Source of the DNA: Eledone cirrhosa
Lineage: Eukaryota
Assembly: GCA_964016885.1 (NCBI GenBank)
Contig: OZ024759.1
Span: forward strand, 18,600,001-18,664,000
DNA: 64,000 nucleotides
Direction of reading: 5' to 3'
The notes beneath the pieces are model-generated. The model was not told the DNA's origin. It saw nothing but the letters and a program-made list of their open reading frames with translations, and made no database searches. Within the stretch, counting starts at the first letter, position 1, and each line of letters starts with the position of its first letter. Below are positions 5,845 through 54,872 of this stretch, piece by piece. Position numbers and translations under genes: made by a program.

Positions 5845-5952
5845 TGATATGTGGTGACAGTCGAGTTTGCAATTTTCAACTGTTGAAAATTGCAAACTCG
5901 ACTGTCACCATAAAAACAAATAACGAAACGAAATTAAATATGGTATGCCTAC

Positions 5953-9224: not shown

Positions 9225-10098
9225 GGGAGCGGAAAGGAAGAGTCTCGGACGAAACTATGAAGTTGCTTAAGAAGAGGAAGAATATGAAGAGGACACCTGA
9301 AGATCACCTCGAATATTCCATTCTCAGCAGAGTGATACGTTAACAACTAAAGAGAGAAGCTCCTGAAGGCCGCAAAGGAAAATAAGAGCCTCAAGAAATG
9401 CGAGAGGGACATGACAATGTACAGATCGGAGGTGACGACCCTGAAAAACACAGCTTGAGTACCGGTCAGCGACAAGAGTGAGGTGGAAAAGATTTGCGAA
9501 GACTTCTACACCAAGCGCTTCAAGTCTGCCGGGAATGTGCAGCCGTTGCTGTCACTCCAACAGGAAGAAAATGTGCCACCCATCCTTGTCGGTGAGGTCG
9601 AAAGAGCCGTCGGCTTGATGAAAAGCGGAAAGGCAACAGAGAAAGACGGCATAACATCGGAGGTGTTGAAGTCAAGCGGAGAACAGCTCTGGAAAATCCT
9701 CGCCGAGCGATTCACACACTATCTGGGCGAGGGAAGAATTCCCTCGCACTGGAAAGAGTCGGATACCATCCTGCTATACAAGAAGGGCGATAGAGAAGAT
9801 CTGAAGAACTACCGACCTGTATGCTTGCTGTCTCACGTGTACAAGCTATTCAAGCAAGTTCAGATGGGCTGGATACGTCACCCGATTCACCGATATTCGG
9901 TGGACCCGCGCAGTTGCCGAGTGGTACCCGCGCGAGCGGAATCGATCACTCGGAAGGCCTCCACGAGGGTGGAGTTACGATTTTAAGAATACGATTGGGA
10001 ATACATGGATGAGGAAAACCCGATCCAGAGAGCAATGGACGGCGTGCTGTGACCAGCGGCGCCGAATGGAGGCCCGACAAACTGGTCGGTCAAGGTGA
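9225..10098 (+). mobile_element. Internally deleted RTE-clade LINE (RT pseudogene)
   Basis: GKATEKDGITSEVLK...WKESDTILLYKKGDREDLKNYRPVCLLSHVYKLF (start of RT) is joined at ~9855 to the C-terminal RWAGYVTRFTDIRWTRAVAEWYPRERNRSLGRPPRGW in another frame. Confidence 0.9.
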
Positions 10099-10113
10099 TA
10101 TATATGTGTATAT

Positions 10114-10209
<96 letters not shown>

Positions 10210-10220
10210 GTGTATATATA

Positions 10221-10291
<71 letters not shown>

Positions 10292-10337
10292 ATATATATA
10301 TATATATATATTATGTGCATATATATATATATATATA

Positions 10338-10460
<123 letters not shown>

Positions 10461-10595
10461 ATATATATATATATATATATGTGTGTATATATATATATAA
10501 ATATGTGCATATATATATATAAATATGTGCATATATATATATATATATATATGTGCATATATATATATATATATATGTGTATATATATATATATA

Positions 10596-10678
<83 letters not shown>

Positions 10679-10715
10679 ATATGTATATATATATGTATAT
10701 ATATATGTATATATA

Positions 10716-10814
<99 letters not shown>

Positions 10815-10821
10815 GTATATG

Positions 10822-10888
<67 letters not shown>

Positions 10889-10889
10889 G

Positions 10890-10921
<32 letters not shown>

Positions 10922-10976
10922 TGTGTGTATATATATATATATATGTGTGTATATATATATATATATGTGTATATAC

Positions 10977-11039
<63 letters not shown>

Positions 11040-11062
11040 CATATATATATGTATATATATAT

Positions 11063-11122
<60 letters not shown>

Positions 11123-11123
11123 C

Positions 11124-11172
<49 letters not shown>

Positions 11173-11187
11173 TATATATATATACAC

Positions 11188-11230
<43 letters not shown>

Positions 11231-11238
11231 CATATATA

Positions 11239-11295
<57 letters not shown>

Positions 11296-11315
11296 CATAC
11301 ATATATATATATATG

Positions 11316-11359
<44 letters not shown>

Positions 11360-11375
11360 CATATATATATATATG

Positions 11376-11433
<58 letters not shown>

Positions 11434-11449
11434 TATATGTGTATGTATA

Positions 11450-11609
11450 TAACATCAAAAGATGGTTAAAGGAGTTCCATGTATTTTATTATGCGCATTT
11501 CAAAAACAAATATTATCATGCGATGACATTTGCGTTTTCGTAAGATAAAATAGGGAGACATGATGTGAAGGTTAAAAAACACTTGTGAATAGTGCAGTTT
11601 TAAATCAAC

Positions 11610-11612
<3 letters not shown>
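11450..11612 (-). mobile_element. Family A single arm, HHR core decayed (CTTACGA)
   Basis: Homologous to 918-1081. Confidence 0.8.
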
Positions 11613-11649
<37 letters not shown>

Positions 11650-11661
11650 ATATGTATATAT

Positions 11662-11693
<32 letters not shown>

Positions 11694-11700
11694 GTATATG

Positions 11701-11732
<32 letters not shown>

Positions 11733-11794
11733 TATATGTATACATATATATATATGTATATATACATGTATATATATATATGTATATGTATATA

Positions 11795-11855
<61 letters not shown>

Positions 11856-11895
11856 GTATATATATATATAATGTATATATATATATGTATATATG

Positions 11896-11948
<53 letters not shown>

Positions 11949-12028
11949 ATATATATATATGCATATATATATATGTATATATGTATATATATATATATAT
12001 ATATATGTGTATATATATATATATATAT

Positions 12029-12441
<413 letters not shown>

Positions 12442-12442
12442 G

Positions 12443-12604
<162 letters not shown>

Positions 12605-12660
12605 TGTATATATATGTATATGTATATGTATATATATATATATATAATATATATATATGT

Positions 12661-12714
<54 letters not shown>

Positions 12715-12715
12715 G

Positions 12716-12776
<61 letters not shown>

Positions 12777-12833
12777 GTATATGTATATATATATATATAT
12801 GTATATATATGTATATATATATATATGTATATG

Positions 12834-12864
<31 letters not shown>

Positions 12865-12873
12865 GTATATGTG

Positions 12874-12904
<31 letters not shown>

Positions 12905-12913
12905 GTATATGTG

Positions 12914-13062
<149 letters not shown>

Positions 13063-13119
13063 GTATATATATGTTTATATATATATGTATATATATATAT
13101 ATGTATATGTATATATATG

Positions 13120-13294
<175 letters not shown>

Positions 13295-13301
13295 GTATAT
13301 A

Positions 13302-13362
<61 letters not shown>

Positions 13363-13371
13363 GTATATATG

Positions 13372-13516
<145 letters not shown>

Positions 13517-13684
13517 GTATGTATATGTATATAAATATATAATATGTATATATATATATATGTATATATATATGTATATGTATATATATATGTATATGTA
13601 TATATATATATGTATATATATATATATGTATACATATATATATATGTATATATACATGTATATATATATATGTATATGTATATA

Positions 13685-13755
<71 letters not shown>

Positions 13756-13792
13756 GTATATATATATATGTATATATATATATGTATATATG

Positions 13793-13845
<53 letters not shown>

Positions 13846-13859
13846 ATATATATATATGC

Positions 13860-13900
<41 letters not shown>

Positions 13901-13920
13901 TATATATATATATATATATA

Positions 13921-14280
<360 letters not shown>

Positions 14281-14288
14281 TATATGTT

Positions 14289-15075
<787 letters not shown>

Positions 15076-15076
15076 G

Positions 15077-15790
<714 letters not shown>

Positions 15791-15867
15791 GTATATATAT
15801 ATATATATATATACACATATATGTATATATATGTATATATATATATATATATACACATATATGTATA

Positions 15868-16175
<308 letters not shown>

Positions 16176-16187
16176 TGTATATATATG

Positions 16188-16230
<43 letters not shown>

Positions 16231-16231
16231 G

Positions 16232-16352
<121 letters not shown>

Positions 16353-16363
16353 GTATATATATG

Positions 16364-16412
<49 letters not shown>

Positions 16413-16483
16413 GTATATGTATATTTATATATATATATATATGTATATATATGTATATGTATATATATATATATGTATATGTG

Positions 16484-16514
<31 letters not shown>

Positions 16515-16523
16515 GTATATGTG

Positions 16524-16554
<31 letters not shown>

Positions 16555-16575
16555 GTATATATATATGTATATGTG

Positions 16576-16694
<119 letters not shown>

Positions 16695-16743
16695 GTATAT
16701 ATATGTATATATATATATGTATATATATATATGTATATGTATG

Positions 16744-16990
<247 letters not shown>

Positions 16991-16999
16991 GTATATATG

Positions 17000-17102
<103 letters not shown>

Positions 17103-17103
17103 G

Positions 17104-17184
<81 letters not shown>

Positions 17185-17293
17185 GTATATATATATGTAT
17201 GTATATGTATATAAATATATAATATGTATATATATATATATGTATATATATATGTATATGTATATAAATATATATGTATATATATATATATAT

Positions 17294-17389
<96 letters not shown>

Positions 17390-17472
17390 GTATATGTATA
17401 TGTATATAAATATATATGTATATATATATATATATAGGTATAAATATATATTTATATATTTATATATATATA

Positions 17473-17690
17473 TTGGTAAAAGGAAAAGAAAATGCTGACA
17501 AATTGTTCCCAGTGAAAAATAGTTTCATTAGGAATAAGCAAAAAATTAGTAATAAGTATTGGTTAGTATTCAGTTTTTACCGGTTGCGCATTTCTAACGC
17601 TTTTCCAAAATAATTTTGAGACAGAGCGCTCGTGATGTTTGCTCTAATCTGATCAGTTTTGGAAATTCTACCTGTATTATGTGAAAAAAA
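17473..17690 (-). mobile_element. Family E single arm
   Basis: Homologous to 22829-23240 and 60942-61447. Confidence 0.75.
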
Positions 17691-19340: not shown

Positions 19341-19379
<39 letters not shown>

Positions 19380-19489
19380 GTAATAAAATGAAAACGAAAT
19401 TTCATTTCTCACTCTTAGTACGGCACTTACTTAAATGTAAGTATGTATGTATACGTACATACATATATGTATACAGACGTACAGTAGCA

Positions 19490-19525
<36 letters not shown>

Positions 19526-19676
19526 CAGGTACACATACATATATGTACGTATCAGTTTAGCGGACGCTTATTATAGCGCCCGCTTTGTTCGTTTGTAAAC
19601 AAACTGAACAGCCTGAATTTATGCCGTACGGTGTTAAGGCAACCACGTCACCTTTTTGTTCAACACTGACACAGGA

Positions 19677-19719
19677 ACGATGTACTAGTTTCAAGCTTGT
19701 TAGCTATCATCAGCATCGT
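19677..19719 (-). ncRNA. Hammerhead ribozyme, inverted retrozyme unit
   Basis: Reverse complement of 20275-20317. Confidence 0.85.
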
Positions 19720-20006
19720 ATACCCTTCTGCCAGATGGTTGAACGTTCGAAAGTATATACTTTCCTTATGAAAATTAACGGCTGAGCAGCCTAATTTGCA
19801 TATCGAGTGAGTCCGGCCAGGCGTACCGAGAACGACAAGTTGTAATAAAATGAAAACGAAATTTCATTTCTCACTCTTAGTACGGCACTTACTTAAATGT
19901 AAGTATGTATGTATACGTACATACATATATGTATACAGACGTACAGTAGCGGGCGCTATAATAAGCGTCCGCTAAACTGATACGTACATATATGTATGTG
20001 TACCTG

Positions 20007-20042
<36 letters not shown>

Positions 20043-20274
20043 TGCTACTGTACGTCTGTATACATATATGTATGTACGTATACATACATACTTACATTTA
20101 AGTAAGTGCCGTACTAAGAGTGAGAAATGAAATTTCGTTTTCATTTTATTACAACTTGTCGTTCTCGGTACGCCTGGCCGGACTCACTCGATATGCAAAT
20201 TAGGCTGCTCAGCCGTTAATTTTCATAAGGAAAGTATATACTTTCGAACGTTCAACCATCTGGCAGAAGGGTAT

Positions 20275-20317
20275 ACGATGCTGATGATAGCTAACAAGCT
20301 TGAAACTAGTACATCGT
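20275..20317 (+). ncRNA. Hammerhead ribozyme, retrozyme unit (also 20735-20777, 21195-21237, 21655-21697, 22115-22157)
   Basis: ACGATG CTGATGA t AGC-taacaa-GCT t GAAAC TA GTA CATCGT. 6-bp stem I, palindromic ACTAGT helix III, predicted cleavage after GUA (20311). Confidence 0.88.
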
Positions 20318-20468
20318 TCCTGTGTCAGTGTTGAACAAAAAGGTGACGTGGTTGCCTTAACACCGTACGGCATAAATTCAGGCTGTTCAGTTTGTTTACA
20401 AACGAACAAAGCGGGCGCTATAATAAGCGTCCGCTAAACTGATACGTACATATATGTATGTGTACCTG

Positions 20469-20499
<31 letters not shown>

Positions 20500-20928
20500 G
20501 CATGCTACTGTACGTCTGTATACATATATGTATGTACGTATACATACATACTTACATTTAAGTAAGTGCCGTACTAAGAGTGAGAAATGAAATTTCGTTT
20601 TCATTTTATTACAACTTGTCGTTCTCGGTACGCCTGGCCGGACTCACTCGATATGCAAATTAGGCTGCTCAGCCGTTAATTTTCATAAGGAAAGTATATA
20701 CTTTCGAACGTTCAACCATCTGGCAGAAGGGTATACGATGCTGATGATAGCTAACAAGCTTGAAACTAGTACATCGTTCCTGTGTCAGTGTTGAACAAAA
20801 AGGTGACGTGGTTGCCTTAACACCGTACGGCATAAATTCAGGCTGTTCAGTTTGTTTACAAACGAACAAAGCGGGCGCTATAATAAGCGTCCGCTAAACT
20901 GATACGTACATATATGTATGTGTACCTG

Positions 20929-20959
<31 letters not shown>

Positions 20960-21388
20960 GCATGCTACTGTACGTCTGTATACATATATGTATGTACGTA
21001 TACATACATACTTACATTTAAGTAAGTGCCGTACTAAGAGTGAGAAATGAAATTTCGTTTTCATTTTATTACAACTTGTCGTTCTCGGTACGCCTGGCCG
21101 GACTCACTCGATATGCAAATTAGGCTGCTCAGCCGTTAATTTTCATAAGGAAAGTATATACTTTCGAACGTTCAACCATCTGGCAGAAGGGTATACGATG
21201 CTGATGATAGCTAACAAGCTTGAAACTAGTACATCGTTCCTGTGTCAGTGTTGAACAAAAAGGTGACGTGGTTGCCTTAACACCGTACGGCATAAATTCA
21301 GGCTGTTCAGTTTGTTTACAAACGAACAAAGCGGGCGCTATAATAAGCGTCCGCTAAACTGATACGTACATATATGTATGTGTACCTG

Positions 21389-21419
<31 letters not shown>

Positions 21420-21848
21420 GCATGCTACTGTACGTCTGTATACATATATGTATGTACGTATACATACATACTTACATTTAAGTAAGTGCCGTACTAAGAG
21501 TGAGAAATGAAATTTCGTTTTCATTTTATTACAACTTGTCGTTCTCGGTACGCCTGGCCGGACTCACTCGATATGCAAATTAGGCTGCTCAGCCGTTAAT
21601 TTTCATAAGGAAAGTATATACTTTCGAACGTTCAACCATCTGGCAGAAGGGTATACGATGCTGATGATAGCTAACAAGCTTGAAACTAGTACATCGTTCC
21701 TGTGTCAGTGTTGAACAAAAAGGTGACGTGGTTGCCTTAACACCGTACGGCATAAATTCAGGCTGTTCAGTTTGTTTACAAACGAACAAAGCGGGCGCTA
21801 TAATAAGCGTCCGCTAAACTGATACGTACATATATGTATGTGTACCTG

Positions 21849-21879
<31 letters not shown>

Positions 21880-22308
21880 GCATGCTACTGTACGTCTGTA
21901 TACATATATGTATGTACGTATACATACATACTTACATTTAAGTAAGTGCCGTACTAAGAGTGAGAAATGAAATTTCGTTTTCATTTTATTACAACTTGTC
22001 GTTCTCGGTACGCCTGGCCGGACTCACTCGATATGCAAATTAGGCTGCTCAGCCGTTAATTTTCATAAGGAAAGTATATACTTTCGAACGTTCAACCATC
22101 TGGCAGAAGGGTATACGATGCTGATGATAGCTAACAAGCTTGAAACTAGTACATCGTTCCTGTGTCAGTGTTGAACAAAAAGGTGACGTGGTTGCCTTAA
22201 CACCGTACGGCATAAATTCAGGCTGTTCAGTTTGTTTACAAACGAACAAAGCGGGCGCTATAATAAGCGTCCGCTAAACTGATACGTACATATATGTATG
22301 TGTACCTG

Positions 22309-22339
<31 letters not shown>

Positions 22340-22420
22340 GCATGCTACTGTACGTCTGTATACATATATGTATGTACGTATACATACATACTATATATAT
22401 ATATTTATATATATTCACAC

Positions 22421-22452
<32 letters not shown>

Positions 22453-22580
22453 TTATATATATTCACACATATATATATACATATATTCACACATATATAT
22501 ATATTTATATATATATATATTCATACACATATATATATATATATATATATAAGTATATATATATATTTATATATATATAT

Positions 22581-22813
22581 ATTAAAATAACAGATTAAAG
22601 TTTAAGCAAAGAATCGCTGTTTTCACCCTTAACGGGACCATCTGAAACTTGAGTTTCAGAAGATCCCGTTAAGGGTGAAAGCAGCGATTCTTTGCTTAAA
22701 CTTTAATCTGTTATTTTAATAAATATTTGCTCTACGGTTCTTATATATTTTATATATATTTATCCTTATCGAGCCCTCTTTGGATTTTAGTCTTCAAATT
22801 TATTATTATTACT
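22581..22813 (+). mobile_element. Fold-back HHR element, family D (palindrome 22581-22720 plus tail)
   Basis: HHR variant 22652-22702: AGTTT CAGAAGA t CCC-gttaa-GGG t GAA AGCA..TGCT T AAACT. Homologs at 24157-24500 (-) and tail-only 1387-1434. Confidence 0.75.
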
Positions 22814-22828
22814 ATATATATATATAAT

Positions 22829-23240
22829 TAAAAAGGAAAAGAAAATTCTGACAAACTTTTCCCAGTGAAAAATAGTTTAATTAGGAATAAGTATAAATTA
22901 GTAATAAGTATTGGCTAGTATTCAGTTTTAGTTTTAAGTTCTTATCGGTTGCGCATTTCTAATGCTTTTCAAAAATATTTTTGAGATAGAGCGCTCGTGA
23001 TGTTTGCTCTAATCAGATTAGAGCAAACATCACGAGCGCTCTATCTGTAAAATATTTTTGAAAAGCATTAGAAATGCGCAACCGGTAAGAACTTAAAACT
23101 AAAACTGAATACTAACCAATACTTATTACTAATTTATACTTATTCCTAATTGAACTATTTTTCACTGGGAAAAGTTTGTCAGAATTTTCTTTTCCTTTTT
23201 ACTAATATATCACAACTCGTGTGTCACACCTCTACTTTTT
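22829..23240 (+). mobile_element. Family E fold-back element (palindrome ~22829-23201 plus tail)
   Basis: ~185-bp arms centred on ctctaatc-a-gattagag (23015). Tail atatatcacaactcgtgtgtcacacctcta. Confidence 0.85.
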
Positions 23241-41461: not shown

Positions 41462-44400
41462 AAAGAATACTGCCAGACTAAATTCAGTCTGCAATAACAT
41501 TCATGAAATGTATCTTTGTCTGTTAATTATTACTGAATATGGGGGACGGTAACAGGCGAAGAATACTGCCAGACTAAATTCAGTCTGCAATAACATTCAT
41601 GAAATATATCTTTGTGTGTTAATTATCACTGAATATGGGGGACGGTAACAGGCGAAGAATACTGCCAGACTATATTCAGTCTGCAATAACATTCATGAAA
41701 TATATCTTTGTGTGTTAATTATCAGTGAATATGCCTGACGGTAACAGGCGAAGAATACTGCCAGACTAAATTCAGTCTGCAATAACATTCATGAAATATA
41801 TCTTTGTCTGTTAATTATCACTGAATATGGGGGACGGTAACAGGCGAAGAATACTGCCAGACTATATTCAGTCTGCAATAACATTCATGAAATGTATCTT
41901 TGTCTGTTAATTATTACTGAATATGCGGGACGGTAACAGGCGAAGAATACTGCCAGACTAAATTCAGTCTGCAATAACATTCATGAAATATATCTTTGTG
42001 TGTTAATTATCACTGAATATGGGGGACGGTAACAGGCGAAGAATACTGCCAGACTATATTCAGTCTGCAATAACATTCATGAAATATATCTTTGTGTGTT
42101 AATTATCAGTGAATATGCCTGACGGTAACAGGCGAAGAATACTGCCAGACTAAATTCAGTCTGCAATAACATTCATGAAATATATCTTTGTCTGTTAATT
42201 ATCACTGAATATGGGGGACGGTAACAGGCGAAGAATACTGCCAGACTATATTCAGTCTGCAATAACATTCATGAAATATATCTTTGTGTGTTAATTATCA
42301 GTGAATATGGGGGACGGTAACAGGCGAAGAAAACTGCCAGACTAAATTCAGTCTGCAATAACATTCATGAAATATATCTTTGTCTGTTAATTATCACTGA
42401 ATATGGGGGACGGTAACAGGCGAAGAATACTGCCAGACTAAATTCAGTCTGCAATAACATTCATGAAATATATCTTTGTCTGTTAATTATCACTGAATAT
42501 GGGGGACGGTAACAGGCGAAGAATACTGCCAGACTAAATTCAGTCTGCAATAACATTCATGAAATATATCTTTGTCTGTTAATTATCACTGAATATGGGG
42601 GACGGTAACAGGCGAAGAAAACTGCCAGACTAAATTCAGTCTGCAATAACATTCATGAAATATATCTTTGTGTGTTAATTATCACTGAATATGGGGGACG
42701 GTAACAGGCGAAGAAAACTGCCAGACTAAATTCAGTCTGCAATAACATTCATGAAATATATCTTTGTCTGTTAATTATCACTGAATATGGGGGACGGTAA
42801 CAGGCGAAGAATACTGCCAGACTAAATTCAGTCTGCAATAACATTCATTAAATATATCTTTGTCTGTTAATTATCACTGAATATGGGGGACGGTAACAGG
42901 CGAAGAATACTGCCAGACTAAATTCAGTCTGCAATAACATTCATTAAATATATCTTTGTCTGTTAATTATCACTGAATATGGGGGACGGTAACAGGCGAA
43001 GAATACTGCCAGACTAAATTCAGTCTGCAATAACATTCATTAAATATATCTTTGTCTGTTAATTATCACTGAATATGGGGGACGGTAACAGGCGAAGAAT
43101 ACTGCCAGACTAAATTCAGTCTGCAATAACATTCATTAAATATATCTTTGTCTGTTAATTATCACTGAATATGGGGGACGGTAACAGGCGAAGAATACTG
43201 CCAGACTAAATTCAGTCTGCAATAACATTCATGAAATATATCTTTGTGTGTTAATTATCACTGAATATGCGGGACGGTAACAGGCGAAGAATACTGCCAG
43301 ACTATATTCAGTCTGCAATAACATTCATGAAATATATCTTTGTGTGTTAATTATCACTGAATATGCCCGACGGTAACAGGCGAAGAATACTGCCAGACTA
43401 AATTCAGTCTGCAATAACATTCATGAAATGTATCTTTGTCTGTTAATTATCAGTGAATATGGGGGACGGTAACAGGCGAAGAATACTGCCAGACTAAATT
43501 CAGTCTGCAATAACATTCATGAAATGTATCTTTGTGTGTTAATTATCACTGAATATGGGGGACGGTAACAGGCGAAGAATACTGCCAGACTAAATTCAGT
43601 CTGCAATAACATTCATGAAATGTATCTTTGTGTGTTAATTATCACTGAATATGCGGGACGGTAACAGGCGAAGAAAACTGCCAGACTAAATTCAGTCTGC
43701 AATAACATTCATTAAATATATCTTTGTGTGTTAATTATCACTGCATATGCCTGACGGTAACAGGCGAAGAATACTGCCAGACTAAATTCAGTCTGCAATA
43801 ACATTCATGAAATATATCTTTGTCTGTTAATTATCACTGAATATGCGGGACGGTAACAAGCGAAGAATACTGCCAGACTAAATTCAGTCTGCAATAACAT
43901 TCATGAAATGTATCTTTGTCTGTTAATTATCACTGAATATGGGGGACGGTAACAGGCGAAGAATACTGCCAGACTAAATTCAGTCTGCAATAACATTCAT
44001 GAAATGTATCTTTGTCTGTTAATTATCACTGAATATGGGGGACGGTAACAGGCGAAGAATACTGCCAGACTAAATTCAGTCTGCAATAACATTCATGAAA
44101 TATATCTTTGTGTGTTAATTATCACTGAATATGCGGGACGGTAACAGGCGAAGAATACTGCCAGACTAAATTCAGTCTGCAATAACATTCATGAAATATA
44201 TCTTTGTGTGTTAATTATCACTGAATATGCGGGACGGTAACAGGCGAAGAATACTGCCAGACTATATTCAGTCTGCAATAACATTCATGAAATATATCTT
44301 TGTGTGTTAATTATCACTGAATATGCGGGACGGTAACAGGCGAAGAATACTGCCAGACTATATTCAGTCTGCAATAACATTCATGAAATATATCTTTGTG

Positions 44401-45793
44401 TGTTAATTATCAGTGAATATGGGGGACGGTAACAGGCGAAGAATACTGCCAGACTATATTCAGTCTGCAATAACATTCATGAAATATATCTTTGTGTGTT
44501 AATTATCACTGAATATGCCCGACGGTAACAGGCGAAGAATACTGCCAGACTAAATTCAGTCTGCAATAACATTCATGAAATGTATCTTTGTGTGTTAATT
44601 ATCACTGAATATGGGGGACGGTAACAGGCGAAGAATACTGCCAGACTAAATTCAGTCTGCAATAACATTCATGAAATATATCTTTGTGTCTTAATTATCA
44701 CTGAATATGCGGGACGGTAACAGGCGAAGAATACTGCCAGACTAAATTCAGTCTACAATAACATTCATGAAATATATCTTTGTCTGTTAATTATCACTGA
44801 ATATGCCCGACGGTAACAGGCGAAGAAAACTGCCAGACTAAATTCAGTCTGCAATAACATTCATGAAATATATCTTTGTGTGTTAATTATCACTGAATAT
44901 GCGGGACGGTAACAAGCGAAGAATACTGCCAGACTAAATTCAGTCTGCAATAACATTCATGAAATATCTCTTTGTCTGTTAATTATCACTGAATATGGGG
45001 GACGGTAACAGGCGAAGAATACTGCCAGACTAAATTCAGTCTGCAATAACATTCATGAAATGTATCTTTGTCTGTTAATTATCACTGAATATGGGGGACG
45101 GTAACAGGCGAAGAATACTGCCAGACTAAATTCAGTCTGCAATAACATTCATGAAATATATCTTTGTCTGTTAATTATCACTGAATATGGGGGACGGTAA
45201 CAGGCGAAGAATACTGCCAGACTAAATTCAGTCTGCAATAACATTCATGAAATATATCTTTGTGTGTTAATTATCACTGCATATGCGGGACGGTAACAGG
45301 CGAAGAATACTGCCAGACTAAATTCAGTCTGCAATAACATTCATGAAATATATCTTTGTGTGTTAATTATCACTGAATATGGGGGACGGTAACAGGCGAA
45401 GAATACTGCCAGACTAAACTCAGTCTGCAATAACATTCATTAAATATATCTTTGTCTGTTAATTATCACTGAATATGCCCGACGGTAACAGGCGAAGAAT
45501 ACTGCCAGACTAAACTCAGTCTGCAATAACATTCATGAAATATATCTTTGTCTGTTAATTATCACTGAATATGCCCGACGGTAACAGGCGAAGAATACTG
45601 CCAGACTAAATTCAGTCTACAATAACATTCATGAAATATATCTTTCTGTGTCAATTATCACTGAATATGCGGGACGGTAACAGGCGAAGAATACTGCCAG
45701 ACTAAATTCAGTCTGCAATAACATTCATGAAATATATCTTTCTGTGTCAATTATCACTGAATATGCCTGACGGTAATAGGCGAAGAAAACTGC
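41462..45793. repeat. 96-bp tandem satellite, ~45 copies
   Basis: gaatactgccagactaaattcagtctgc recurs at 41561, 41657, 41753 and so on. Only a few polymorphic sites; no spacers. Confidence 0.97.
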
Positions 45794-53785: not shown

Positions 53786-54872
53786 AGACAGAGGTAGGTA
53801 GGTGGGTAGGAAGAGAGGTAGGTAGATATATATAGATGTGTAGTAAGTGGGTTGATGGTTAGAAAGATGGGTATAAAGAGACAGAGGTAGGTAGGTAGAT
53901 ATATAGATGTGTAGTAAGTGGGTTGATTGTTAGAAAGATGGGTATAAAGAGACAGAGGTAGGTAGGTTGGTAGGGAGAGAGGTAGGTAGACATATAGATG
54001 TGTAGTAGGTGGGTTGATGGTTAGAAAGATGGGTATAAAGAGACAGAGGTAGGTAGGTTGGTAGGGAGAGAGGTAGGTAGATATATAGATGTGTCGTAAG
54101 TGGGTTGATGGTTAGAAAGATGGGTATAAAGAGACAGAGGTAGGTTGGTGGGTAGAAAGATAGGTAGGTAGATATATAGATGTGTAGTAGGTGGGTTGAT
54201 GGTTAGAAAGATGGGTATAAAGAGACAGAGGTAGGTAGGTTGGTAGAAAGATAGGTAGGTAGATATATAGATGTCTAGTAAGTGGGTTGATGGTTAGAAA
54301 GATAGGTATAAAGAGACAGAGGTAGGTAGGTTGGTAGGGAGAGATGTAGGTAGATATATAGATGTGTAGTAAGTGGGTTGATGGTTAGAAAGATGGGTAT
54401 AAAGAGACAGAGGTAGGTTGGTTGGTAGGGAGATAGGTAGGTAGATATATAGATGTGTAGTAAGTGGGTTGATGGTTAGAAAGATGGGTATAAAGAGACA
54501 GAGGTAGGTTGGTTGGTAGGGAGATAGGTAGGTAGATATATAGATGTGTAGTAAGTGGGTTGATGGTTAGAAAGATGGGTATAAAGAGACAGAGGTAGGT
54601 TGGTTGGTAGGGAGATAGGTAGGTAGATATATAGATGTGTAGTAGGTGGGTTGATGGTTAGAAAGATGGGTATAAAGAGACAGAGGTAGGTAGGTTGGTA
54701 GAAAGATAGGTAGGTAGATATATAGATGTGTAGTAAGTGGGTTGATGGTTAGAAAGATGGGTATAAAGAGCAGAGGTAGGTAGGTTGGTAGGGAGAGAGG
54801 TAGGTAGATATATAGATGTGTAGTAAGTGGGTTGATGGTTAGAAAGATGGGTATAAAGAGACAGAGGTAGGC
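53786..54872. repeat. ~91-bp purine-rich minisatellite, ~12 copies
   Basis: gacagaggtagg at 53951, 54042, 54133, 54224 and so on. Confidence 0.93.

Follow-up and report, generated by a model that had tools for sequence, protein, structure and literature searches.

The locus described here raises the question of how a small repeat that carries a hammerhead ribozyme motif would be cleaved as RNA, kept as a circle and returned to the genome. It lies in a stretch of 64,000 nucleotides of the Eledone cirrhosa genome (the 64-kb window), of which a preliminary description had pointed out an extended, bulged stem I and a palindromic helix III, with the proposal that multimeric transcripts would cleave while monomeric circles stay stable. 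Most animal hammerheads are active as dimers, the multimers being cleaved and the monomer circles avoiding cleavage (PMC4209133; this and the other sources are cited for the portions available). Retrozymes have been linked to Penelope pseudo-LTRs (bioRxiv 10.64898/2026.07.22.740005), and the hypothesis that Penelope-like elements mobilise them rests, in the available portions of these sources, on co-occurrence and pseudo-LTR similarity (PMC7229834; bioRxiv 10.64898/2026.07.22.740005).

Structure of the hammerhead motif

By sequence inspection, the region 20249-20336 was identified as a type I hammerhead with an open helix I, the core CUGANGA...GAAA...UH and three helices. The catalytic core (20281..20311, + strand, as are all elements of the motif) was composed of CUGAUGA (20281-20287), a U.U at 10.1/11.1, helix II AGCU/AGCU with the loop AACA, GAAA (20302-20305), CUAG and UA, and cleavage was predicted after A20311 (A17) in the GUA triplet 20309-20311. 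Stem I of 6 bp was formed by ACGATG (20275-20280) and CATCGT (20312-20317), followed outward by loop 1 (20269..20321), in which UAU 20272-20274 faces U20318 and is closed by G20271-C20319, G20270-C20320 and G20269.U20321, then by a second distal helix CTGGCA/TGTCAG (20260-20265/20323-20328) and a third GTTCAAC/GTTGAAC (20250-20256/20330-20336). All pairings named in the preliminary description (the 6-bp stem I, agg/cct, ctggca/tgtcag and gttcaac/gttgaac) could be found in the sequence, as could the AC-UA-GU helix III, the palindrome ACUAGU at 20305..20310; a mismatch at the foot of helix II, U20288.U20301, had been overlooked. The extended stem I proposed there, with both distal helices, was also present in the minimum-energy fold of the 88-nt region (-28.1 kcal/mol, z -3.16), and equally good folds were obtained for 2 of 200 shuffles.

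Helix I (6 bp), helix II (~4 bp) and helix III (1-2 bp, capped by a palindromic loop of 2-4 nt) have the dimensions of the canonical metazoan type I hammerhead; in most animal hammerheads helix I has 6 bp and helix II 4 bp, the loops are in contact, and helix III has 1-2 bp and a loop of 2-4 nt that is palindromic (PMC4209133). The 6-bp helix I, the 4-bp helix II with a loop ending in A and the short palindromic helix III are common to Schistosoma Sm-alpha and Rfam HH9 (PMC4209133), together with UA at -9/-8 and U at +7. Compared with Rfam HH9, the window's family lacks G10.1-C11.1 and gave a weak match of 19.3 bits, below the gathering score of 52 (E 0.014), the alignment taking in the core, stem I and the loop 1 UA that is the HH9 consensus at -9/-8. 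At the gathering threshold, no Rfam match was found anywhere in the 64-kb window, and the E-value scan of the window returned chiefly microsatellite noise. The G10.1-C11.1 pair, typical but non-obligatory in the canonical class, is replaced by U.U here, and the position is unpaired in 6 of the 11 rows of the alignment described below. With axolotl HHR_Amex1 the motif has in common a single-pair helix III, a palindromic tetraloop and the loop 1-loop 2 nucleotides, and with HHR_Amex2 the U.U at the base of helix II (PMC7229834); it unites features of the two, differs from the axolotl and newt hammerheads in sequence, and its activity is a predicted one. Nothing in the motif is unusual among animal hammerheads, of which it represents the canonical type I. 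The U.U at 10.1/11.1 and the GUA or GUU triplets may slow cleavage.

The 460-bp repeat unit and its array

The motif is located inside a 460-bp tandem repeat of ~37% GC; set in (TA)n, five copies run in the direct orientation and one is inverted. The direct arm (19948..22392, +) is composed of 5'-truncated 460-bp units, four of them complete and identical, with hammerheads at 20281, 20741, 21201, 21661 and 22121, and its 3' end at unit position 241 (the 'short' end) is joined to (TA)n. The inverted arm (19376..19950, -) carries one hammerhead (core 19713-19683) and ends 3' at unit position 305 (the 'long' end), also joined to (TA)n. The two arms are linked by a 3-nt microhomology at 19948-19950, and a Penelope-type 'tail' of ~56-64 nt (19376..19431, -) is found at the outer end of the inverted arm only. 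Since both outer ends abut (TA)n, a target-site duplication is unreadable.

The octamer ATGCAAAT at 20193..20200 (+), ~112-119 nt upstream of the cleavage site, was found in 131 of 137 sampled copies of the window's family and also in units of a sister family (A and B below). We take it to be a possible promoter element, a putative role. The newt satellite 2 is said to have an snRNA-type promoter; a literature search on the newt octamer and snRNA gave no confirmation of this. A long hairpin with an internal (TA)n tract was predicted at ~20441-20552, just upstream of the short start site, and a shorter equivalent was seen in family B. The units encode no open reading frame except microsatellite read-through, a frame with reverse transcriptase (RT) and GIY-YIG is absent from within them, and no tRNA gene was found in the 64-kb window.

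Judged by this anatomy, the repeat is best classed as a protein-free non-LTR retrozyme and a dispersed multi-copy family. Tandem protein-free units below 50% GC, one type I hammerhead in each, many families and co-occurring Penelope-like elements are common to known non-LTR retrozymes, and the unit of 460 bp is slightly above their range of 150-450 bp in PMC7229834 and within that of 51-972 bp in bioRxiv 10.64898/2026.07.22.740005. Newt satellite 2 and the axolotl repeats likewise have tandem units and a looped helix I extension (PMC7229834; PMC6155905); their units are 330-350 bp, whereas that of the window is 460 bp with an internal (TA)n hairpin.

Copy number and sister families

The 31-nt core occurs 10,718 times as an exact match in the 3.0-Gb genome (control, 0), on many contigs. 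A further 2,742 exact copies had a core with a non-U position 7, which is a free position, and 11,285 had another base at 10.1 with the same ACUAGU. A pattern of the core and the loop 1 and loop 2 letters only gave 38,493 matches (control, 2); its version without CU tetraloops gave 13,990, with CGCG in 97 of the 100 first-listed rows. In all, type I hammerheads that conserve the loops number ~52,000 in this one genome and belong to three or more large families. These were labelled A (the window's), B (a sister family, 63% identical, 466-469 bp), C (an older A-like group), D (unrelated, 310 bp) and E (a decayed group); family B has G10.1-C11.1, unlike family A. Among the contigs of 4 of 23 sequencing runs, X1 and X4 had the same subfamily variants, X9 had one contig and X6 none.

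Within the window itself, the CUGANGA...GAAA pattern was matched 82 times against 1.3 expected. Further motifs of this kind are located at 391(+), 5839(-), 34230(-), 38548(-), 45974(-), 46376(-), 48173(-), 48731(-), 59509(-) and 60282(-); several have a palindrome after GAAA and resemble minimal Penelope-type hammerheads, stem I having been checked for some. A match to the family B tail (5898-5944, -, 47 nt, 85%) is fused beside another hammerhead-bearing piece. The window also contains an inverted repeat of ~360 bp seen by eye (~22836-23200, possibly another inverted stub), tandem arrays of a 96-bp unit x45 (41463-45793) and a 91-bp unit x11 (53884-54871), and a TA-rich tract of 7.4 kb (10098-17473). 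Open frames of 175 and 241 residues at 9459 and 35486 (+) presumably represent fragments of a LINE reverse transcriptase, which they resemble.

Covariation of the distal helices and loop 1

A structure alignment was made of 11 family representatives (three of A, three of C, four of B and one of D). The whole structure was 91% paired and 18 of 30 pairs were changed on both sides, compared with 0 of 500 shuffles and with 32-49% in slid controls, values that count as support and not as a probability because the structure was derived from these very rows, which are related to one another. Stem I was paired in 100% of cells with both-sided changes in 5 of 6 pairs, the second distal helix in 90% with such changes in 3 of 6, and the third in 79%, where family B needs an indel; families B and D fold an equivalent third helix of different sequence. 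Helix II also covaries between families. Families A and B are only 63% identical over 419 nt, yet the extended stem I is retained in both. These results suggested that the distal helices are maintained by compensatory change between sister families, with one register shift.

The shift concerns loop 1. The register G20271-C20319, G20270-C20320 and G20269.U20321 was paired in 31 of 32 cells of the 11 representatives, and family D keeps it with A-U replacing G-C, whereas the agg/cct register with a gtat bulge that had been described earlier was paired in 20 of 32. The latter is off by one; it is possible in the window's subfamily and is ruled out as the conserved pairing by these counts. The conserved internal loop is therefore better drawn as UAU 20272-20274 opposite U20318 than as a gtat bulge. 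Against this drawing, RNAfold favoured the slipped register for the window's young subfamily (-27.9 against -26.5 kcal/mol; pair probability in the circle, 0.9 against 0.1 for the conserved one), whereas the conserved register had a probability of 0.84-0.94 in the five other units that were folded. A tertiary contact could offset the gap of 1.4 kcal/mol. The letters UAW/U of loop 1 and UAAYAA of loop 2 are constant in families A, B and D despite the changes in the stems, and a tertiary contact between the two loops is likely from this conservation.

Helix III palindrome and dimer cleavage

The helix III tetraloop is CUAG in families A, B and C and CGCG in D, and in family E it is most often CAUG (10 of the 26 rows outside A, B, C and D among the 100 matches listed, the search pattern hiding some variants); all are palindromes, and the helix III regions of the other families read ACGCGU and ACAUGU. 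The inner tetraloop dinucleotides UA, GC and AU are thus self-complementary in three families. A self-complementary inner dinucleotide cannot pair within one hairpin, which fits a helix shared between two copies. The retention of the palindrome across three families would be expected by chance at ~1 in 64 if the families are independent, by our own estimate, and is taken as modest evidence. Separately, four family A copies at G000:C1:319893994-319896433 were seen with CAUG replacing CUAG, a two-base change that preserves the palindrome.

The ACUAGU self-duplex was calculated at -4.8 kcal/mol, compared with +6.0 for the hairpin closed by A-U and +0.9 to +1.4 after one-base breaks. When a two-unit RNA was folded under constraint, the double hammerhead (-245.8) was 4.2 kcal/mol better than two single hammerheads (-241.6); the free minimum of the same RNA was -255.2, both constrained hammerhead folds lying 9-14 kcal/mol above it. 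The predicted monomer circle left the hammerhead helices able to form, as do the circles of animal retrozymes (PMC7229834).

Another explanation is that a single hammerhead can cleave adequately by virtue of its extended stem I, the palindrome only adding speed and the circles being protected otherwise, e.g. by a bound protein. Newt monomers of satellite 2 can self-cleave with an internally looped helix I extension (review PMC6155905), an extension of helix I is conserved here with compensatory changes, loops of 2 nt on a helix III of 1-2 bp are allowed by PMC4209133, and PMC7229834 argues that the block in circles must come from a mechanism other than self-pairing. A single fold, however, has no need of inner tetraloop bases that are self-complementary in three families, and the axolotl monomers, which are of like design, cleave just 6% in 1 h for Amex1 (single-pair helix III, palindromic tetraloop) and 22% for Amex2 (U.U at helix II), both being cleaved much better as dimers (PMC7229834). 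We regard adequate cleavage by a single hammerhead as unlikely, though not remote. In Xenopus, 1 of 9 predicted retrozyme dimers was cleaved (bioRxiv 10.64898/2026.07.22.740005).

Based on the published model, the palindromes kept as CUAG, CGCG and CAUG and the advantage of the double fold, the hammerhead probably cleaves best as a pair of tandem copies joined through the palindromic helix III. The earlier proposal of cleaving multimers and stable monomer circles is supported to this extent; the extended stem I may count against a strict dimer-only rule instead of favouring it, since newt monomers self-cleave by means of a looped helix I extension (PMC6155905).

Insertion ends and the candidate enzyme

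The ends of insertions were compared at 61 loci with 87 terminal arms, comprising 52 regions from the first 100 exact matches (contig C1), 8 regions from the best DNA matches and the window. In family A, two positions adjoining (TA)n accounted for the ends of 79 of the 87 terminal arms; 43 of the 3' ends were at unit position ~305 (+2 probable), 34 at ~240-253 and 8 elsewhere. The simple loci with two hammerhead arms (n=20) were 17 long+short (+1 probable), 1 short+short, 1 unclear and 0 long+long, and 4 loci were complex. Of 30 two-ended insertions in a BLAST-based census, 16 were long+short, 5 were short+short and again none was long+long, the remaining 9 having an end left unclassified. Family B had its own two ends in 26 of 32 arms, at ~296-305 (16/32) or 224-235 (10/32), and family D in 15 of 19, at ~159-168 (7/19) or 128-131 (8/19), the last of these being less secure as the unit carries a short TA run there.

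The insertions showed 5' truncation, an inverted arm, a tail on one arm only and fixed 3' ends. For one Penelope-like element, two internal RT start sites define the tail in vitro (PMC11167929), and insertions of such elements combine tandem and inverted arms, one end carrying a tail (PMC8557442, PMC3846280). The insertions of both kinds have in common 5' truncation, tandem and inverted arms, a one-end tail, AT-rich or (TA)n targets and two fixed start sites (PMC11167929, PMC8557442, PMC3846280), whereas the window's unit is without an open reading frame and the tails are ~60 nt (A), ~70 nt (B) and ~34 nt (D) compared with the usual 30-40 nt. The two fixed ends and the one-sided tail correspond to the two-start signature of Penelope and suggest copying by a Penelope-type enzyme. 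This tail and inversion signature is absent from the descriptions of non-LTR retrozymes in the available portions of the sources, 'tail' having 0 occurrences in the preprint text available. A literature search on hammerhead, retrozyme, Penelope and cephalopod found no paper on the family or on retrozyme tails; the supplements of PMC7229834 and of the preprint might hold cases.

An abundant RT family was found with many open frames of 713 residues that have RT-like and GIY-YIG-like motifs and look active (93 scored of 91,277 candidates). By motif reading, we take this family to be Penelope-like with a Neptune-type cysteine linker. Pfam did not recognise the 713-residue frame, and among five neighbouring frames it assigned one to RT plus GIY-YIG and gave one a weak RT match. 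When the units were compared with 29 loci of this one RT family, no similarity was found outside simple repeats and nested retrozyme copies, and none to a pseudo-LTR was found at ~250 masked loci, unlike the pseudo-LTR relatives described for non-LTR retrozymes. The insertion is likely the work of the reverse transcriptase and endonuclease of a Penelope-like element. In the window, a 5'-truncated inverted stub at 22575-22826 is 97-98% identical to the end of the 713-residue RT family; within it, CAGAAGA...GAAA at 22657 was considered as a U4A hammerhead variant and dropped on unsupportive folding (z 0.23). At the locus L034:5447-7337, a family D array adjoins a family A insertion, and both family A arms are followed by (TA)n and then by the same RT-frame sequence.

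The tandem-plus-inverted layout, the tail and the (TA)n target, shared as they are with Penelope-like elements, would also be expected if an autonomous Penelope-like element had this unit as its pseudo-LTR, the copies being truncated tail ends of that element. This is improbable: at the 61 loci the cleavage site is preceded by the end of the previous unit, up to 8 hammerheads occur in one arm of family A (L084) and more than 30 are listed in tandem for family B without an open reading frame between them, and this hammerhead belongs to the canonical loop-loop class, in contrast to the mostly minimal hammerheads of Penelope (PMC6155905). Growth of satellite arrays by unequal crossing over, with the ribozyme as a passive relic, is a route discussed in bioRxiv 10.64898/2026.07.22.740005, and some long arrays do have irregularly scattered mutant units (C1:14.04 Mb, C1:95.6 Mb). 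Against it, short arrays are dispersed in their thousands, with inversions and with 3' ends that are fixed and 5' ends that vary, and changes between families preserve pairing. We consider it very improbable, and untenable for the whole family; the longest arrays may have grown in this way.

Template of new insertions

The 5' ends of 88 arms were scattered over the unit, clustered solely in the internal TA tract and gave no transcription-start peak. Because the arm sample requires the core and is hence biased, the genome-wide counts are the real test: 64 5' ends were found at the cleavage site, and a control site lying 13 nt downstream had 83. Five arms that apparently started exactly at the cleavage site all continue 12-70 nt further upstream. 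The copying of cleaved linear monomers would make 5' ends accumulate at the cleavage site, and the lack of such a pile-up indicated that the template runs unbroken through the ribozyme. The difference between units of one arm, as between those of the two arms of an insertion, was 4.3 nt per 131 (85 + 57 pairs), compared with 10.1 between loci (6,879 pairs). An array with mutant CUCG units was considered as the trace of a dimer circle and dropped, its spacing not being strictly periodic.

A circle, an uncleaved multimer and monomers bridged by template jumps would fit these data alike. One reading, which we hold tentatively and at somewhat less than an even chance, is that the Penelope enzyme performs rolling-circle reverse transcription of the ribozyme-made circles, priming on both cut target strands at the two fixed start sites. 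The template may instead be an uncleaved multimer, or a series of cleaved monomers bridged from end to end by template jumps, with no circle involved. The lack of a cut-site stop is predicted equally well, and the anole Penelope protein mainly used uncleaved RNA, hammerhead mutants being without effect on insertion (PMC11167929); the variants shared in one insertion and the scattered 5' ends fit a circle, yet they are compatible with homogeneous linear multimers. Such a linear template is possible, at a probability that we also place a little under one half.

Discussion

The hammerhead design and the logic of dimers and circles have reportedly been in print since the newt work. The finding of the hammerhead is known in kind, because its architecture and the dimer/circle logic have already been described in print for most animal hammerheads (PMC4209133, PMC7229834), and by itself it adds little to the published picture. 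With the comparative set from a single genome, the register of loop 1 is fixed, the distal helices are seen to be kept by compensatory change and the helix III palindrome to swap its sequence. The insertion ends are direct genomic support for the hypothesis that animal retrozymes are mobilised by Penelope-like elements.

Taken together, we have good confidence in a canonical type I hammerhead within a 460-bp non-LTR retrozyme, which likely cleaves best as a pair and was likely inserted by the RT and endonuclease of a Penelope-like element. The sequence anatomy, covariation, copy number, fixed ends and lack of a cut-site stop are the observations that this explanation fits best, and it would operate through cleavage, a need for the dimer, the tertiary contact, circles and the enzyme in the following way. 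The array would be transcribed as a multimer. Loop 1 (UAU/U) would dock on loop 2, two ACUAGU strands would form a shared helix III of 6 bp, and 460-nt monomers would be released. A host ligase would likely close these into poorly cleaving circles; the axolotl hammerhead RNAs are circularised by RtcB (PMC7229834). The Penelope-type enzyme would cut (TA)n DNA and start at two fixed internal RNA sites ~60 nt apart, and its copying would pass the ribozyme site unstopped, giving tandem units, often an inverted arm, and a tail on one side.

If the rolling-circle reading is true, priming at the two start sites would give every insertion a long-tailed arm and a short one. The three families with their own pairs of start sites and the conserved three-tier stem I would then form a system in which the proposed step from circle to genome, and the recognition by the enzyme, may be tested.
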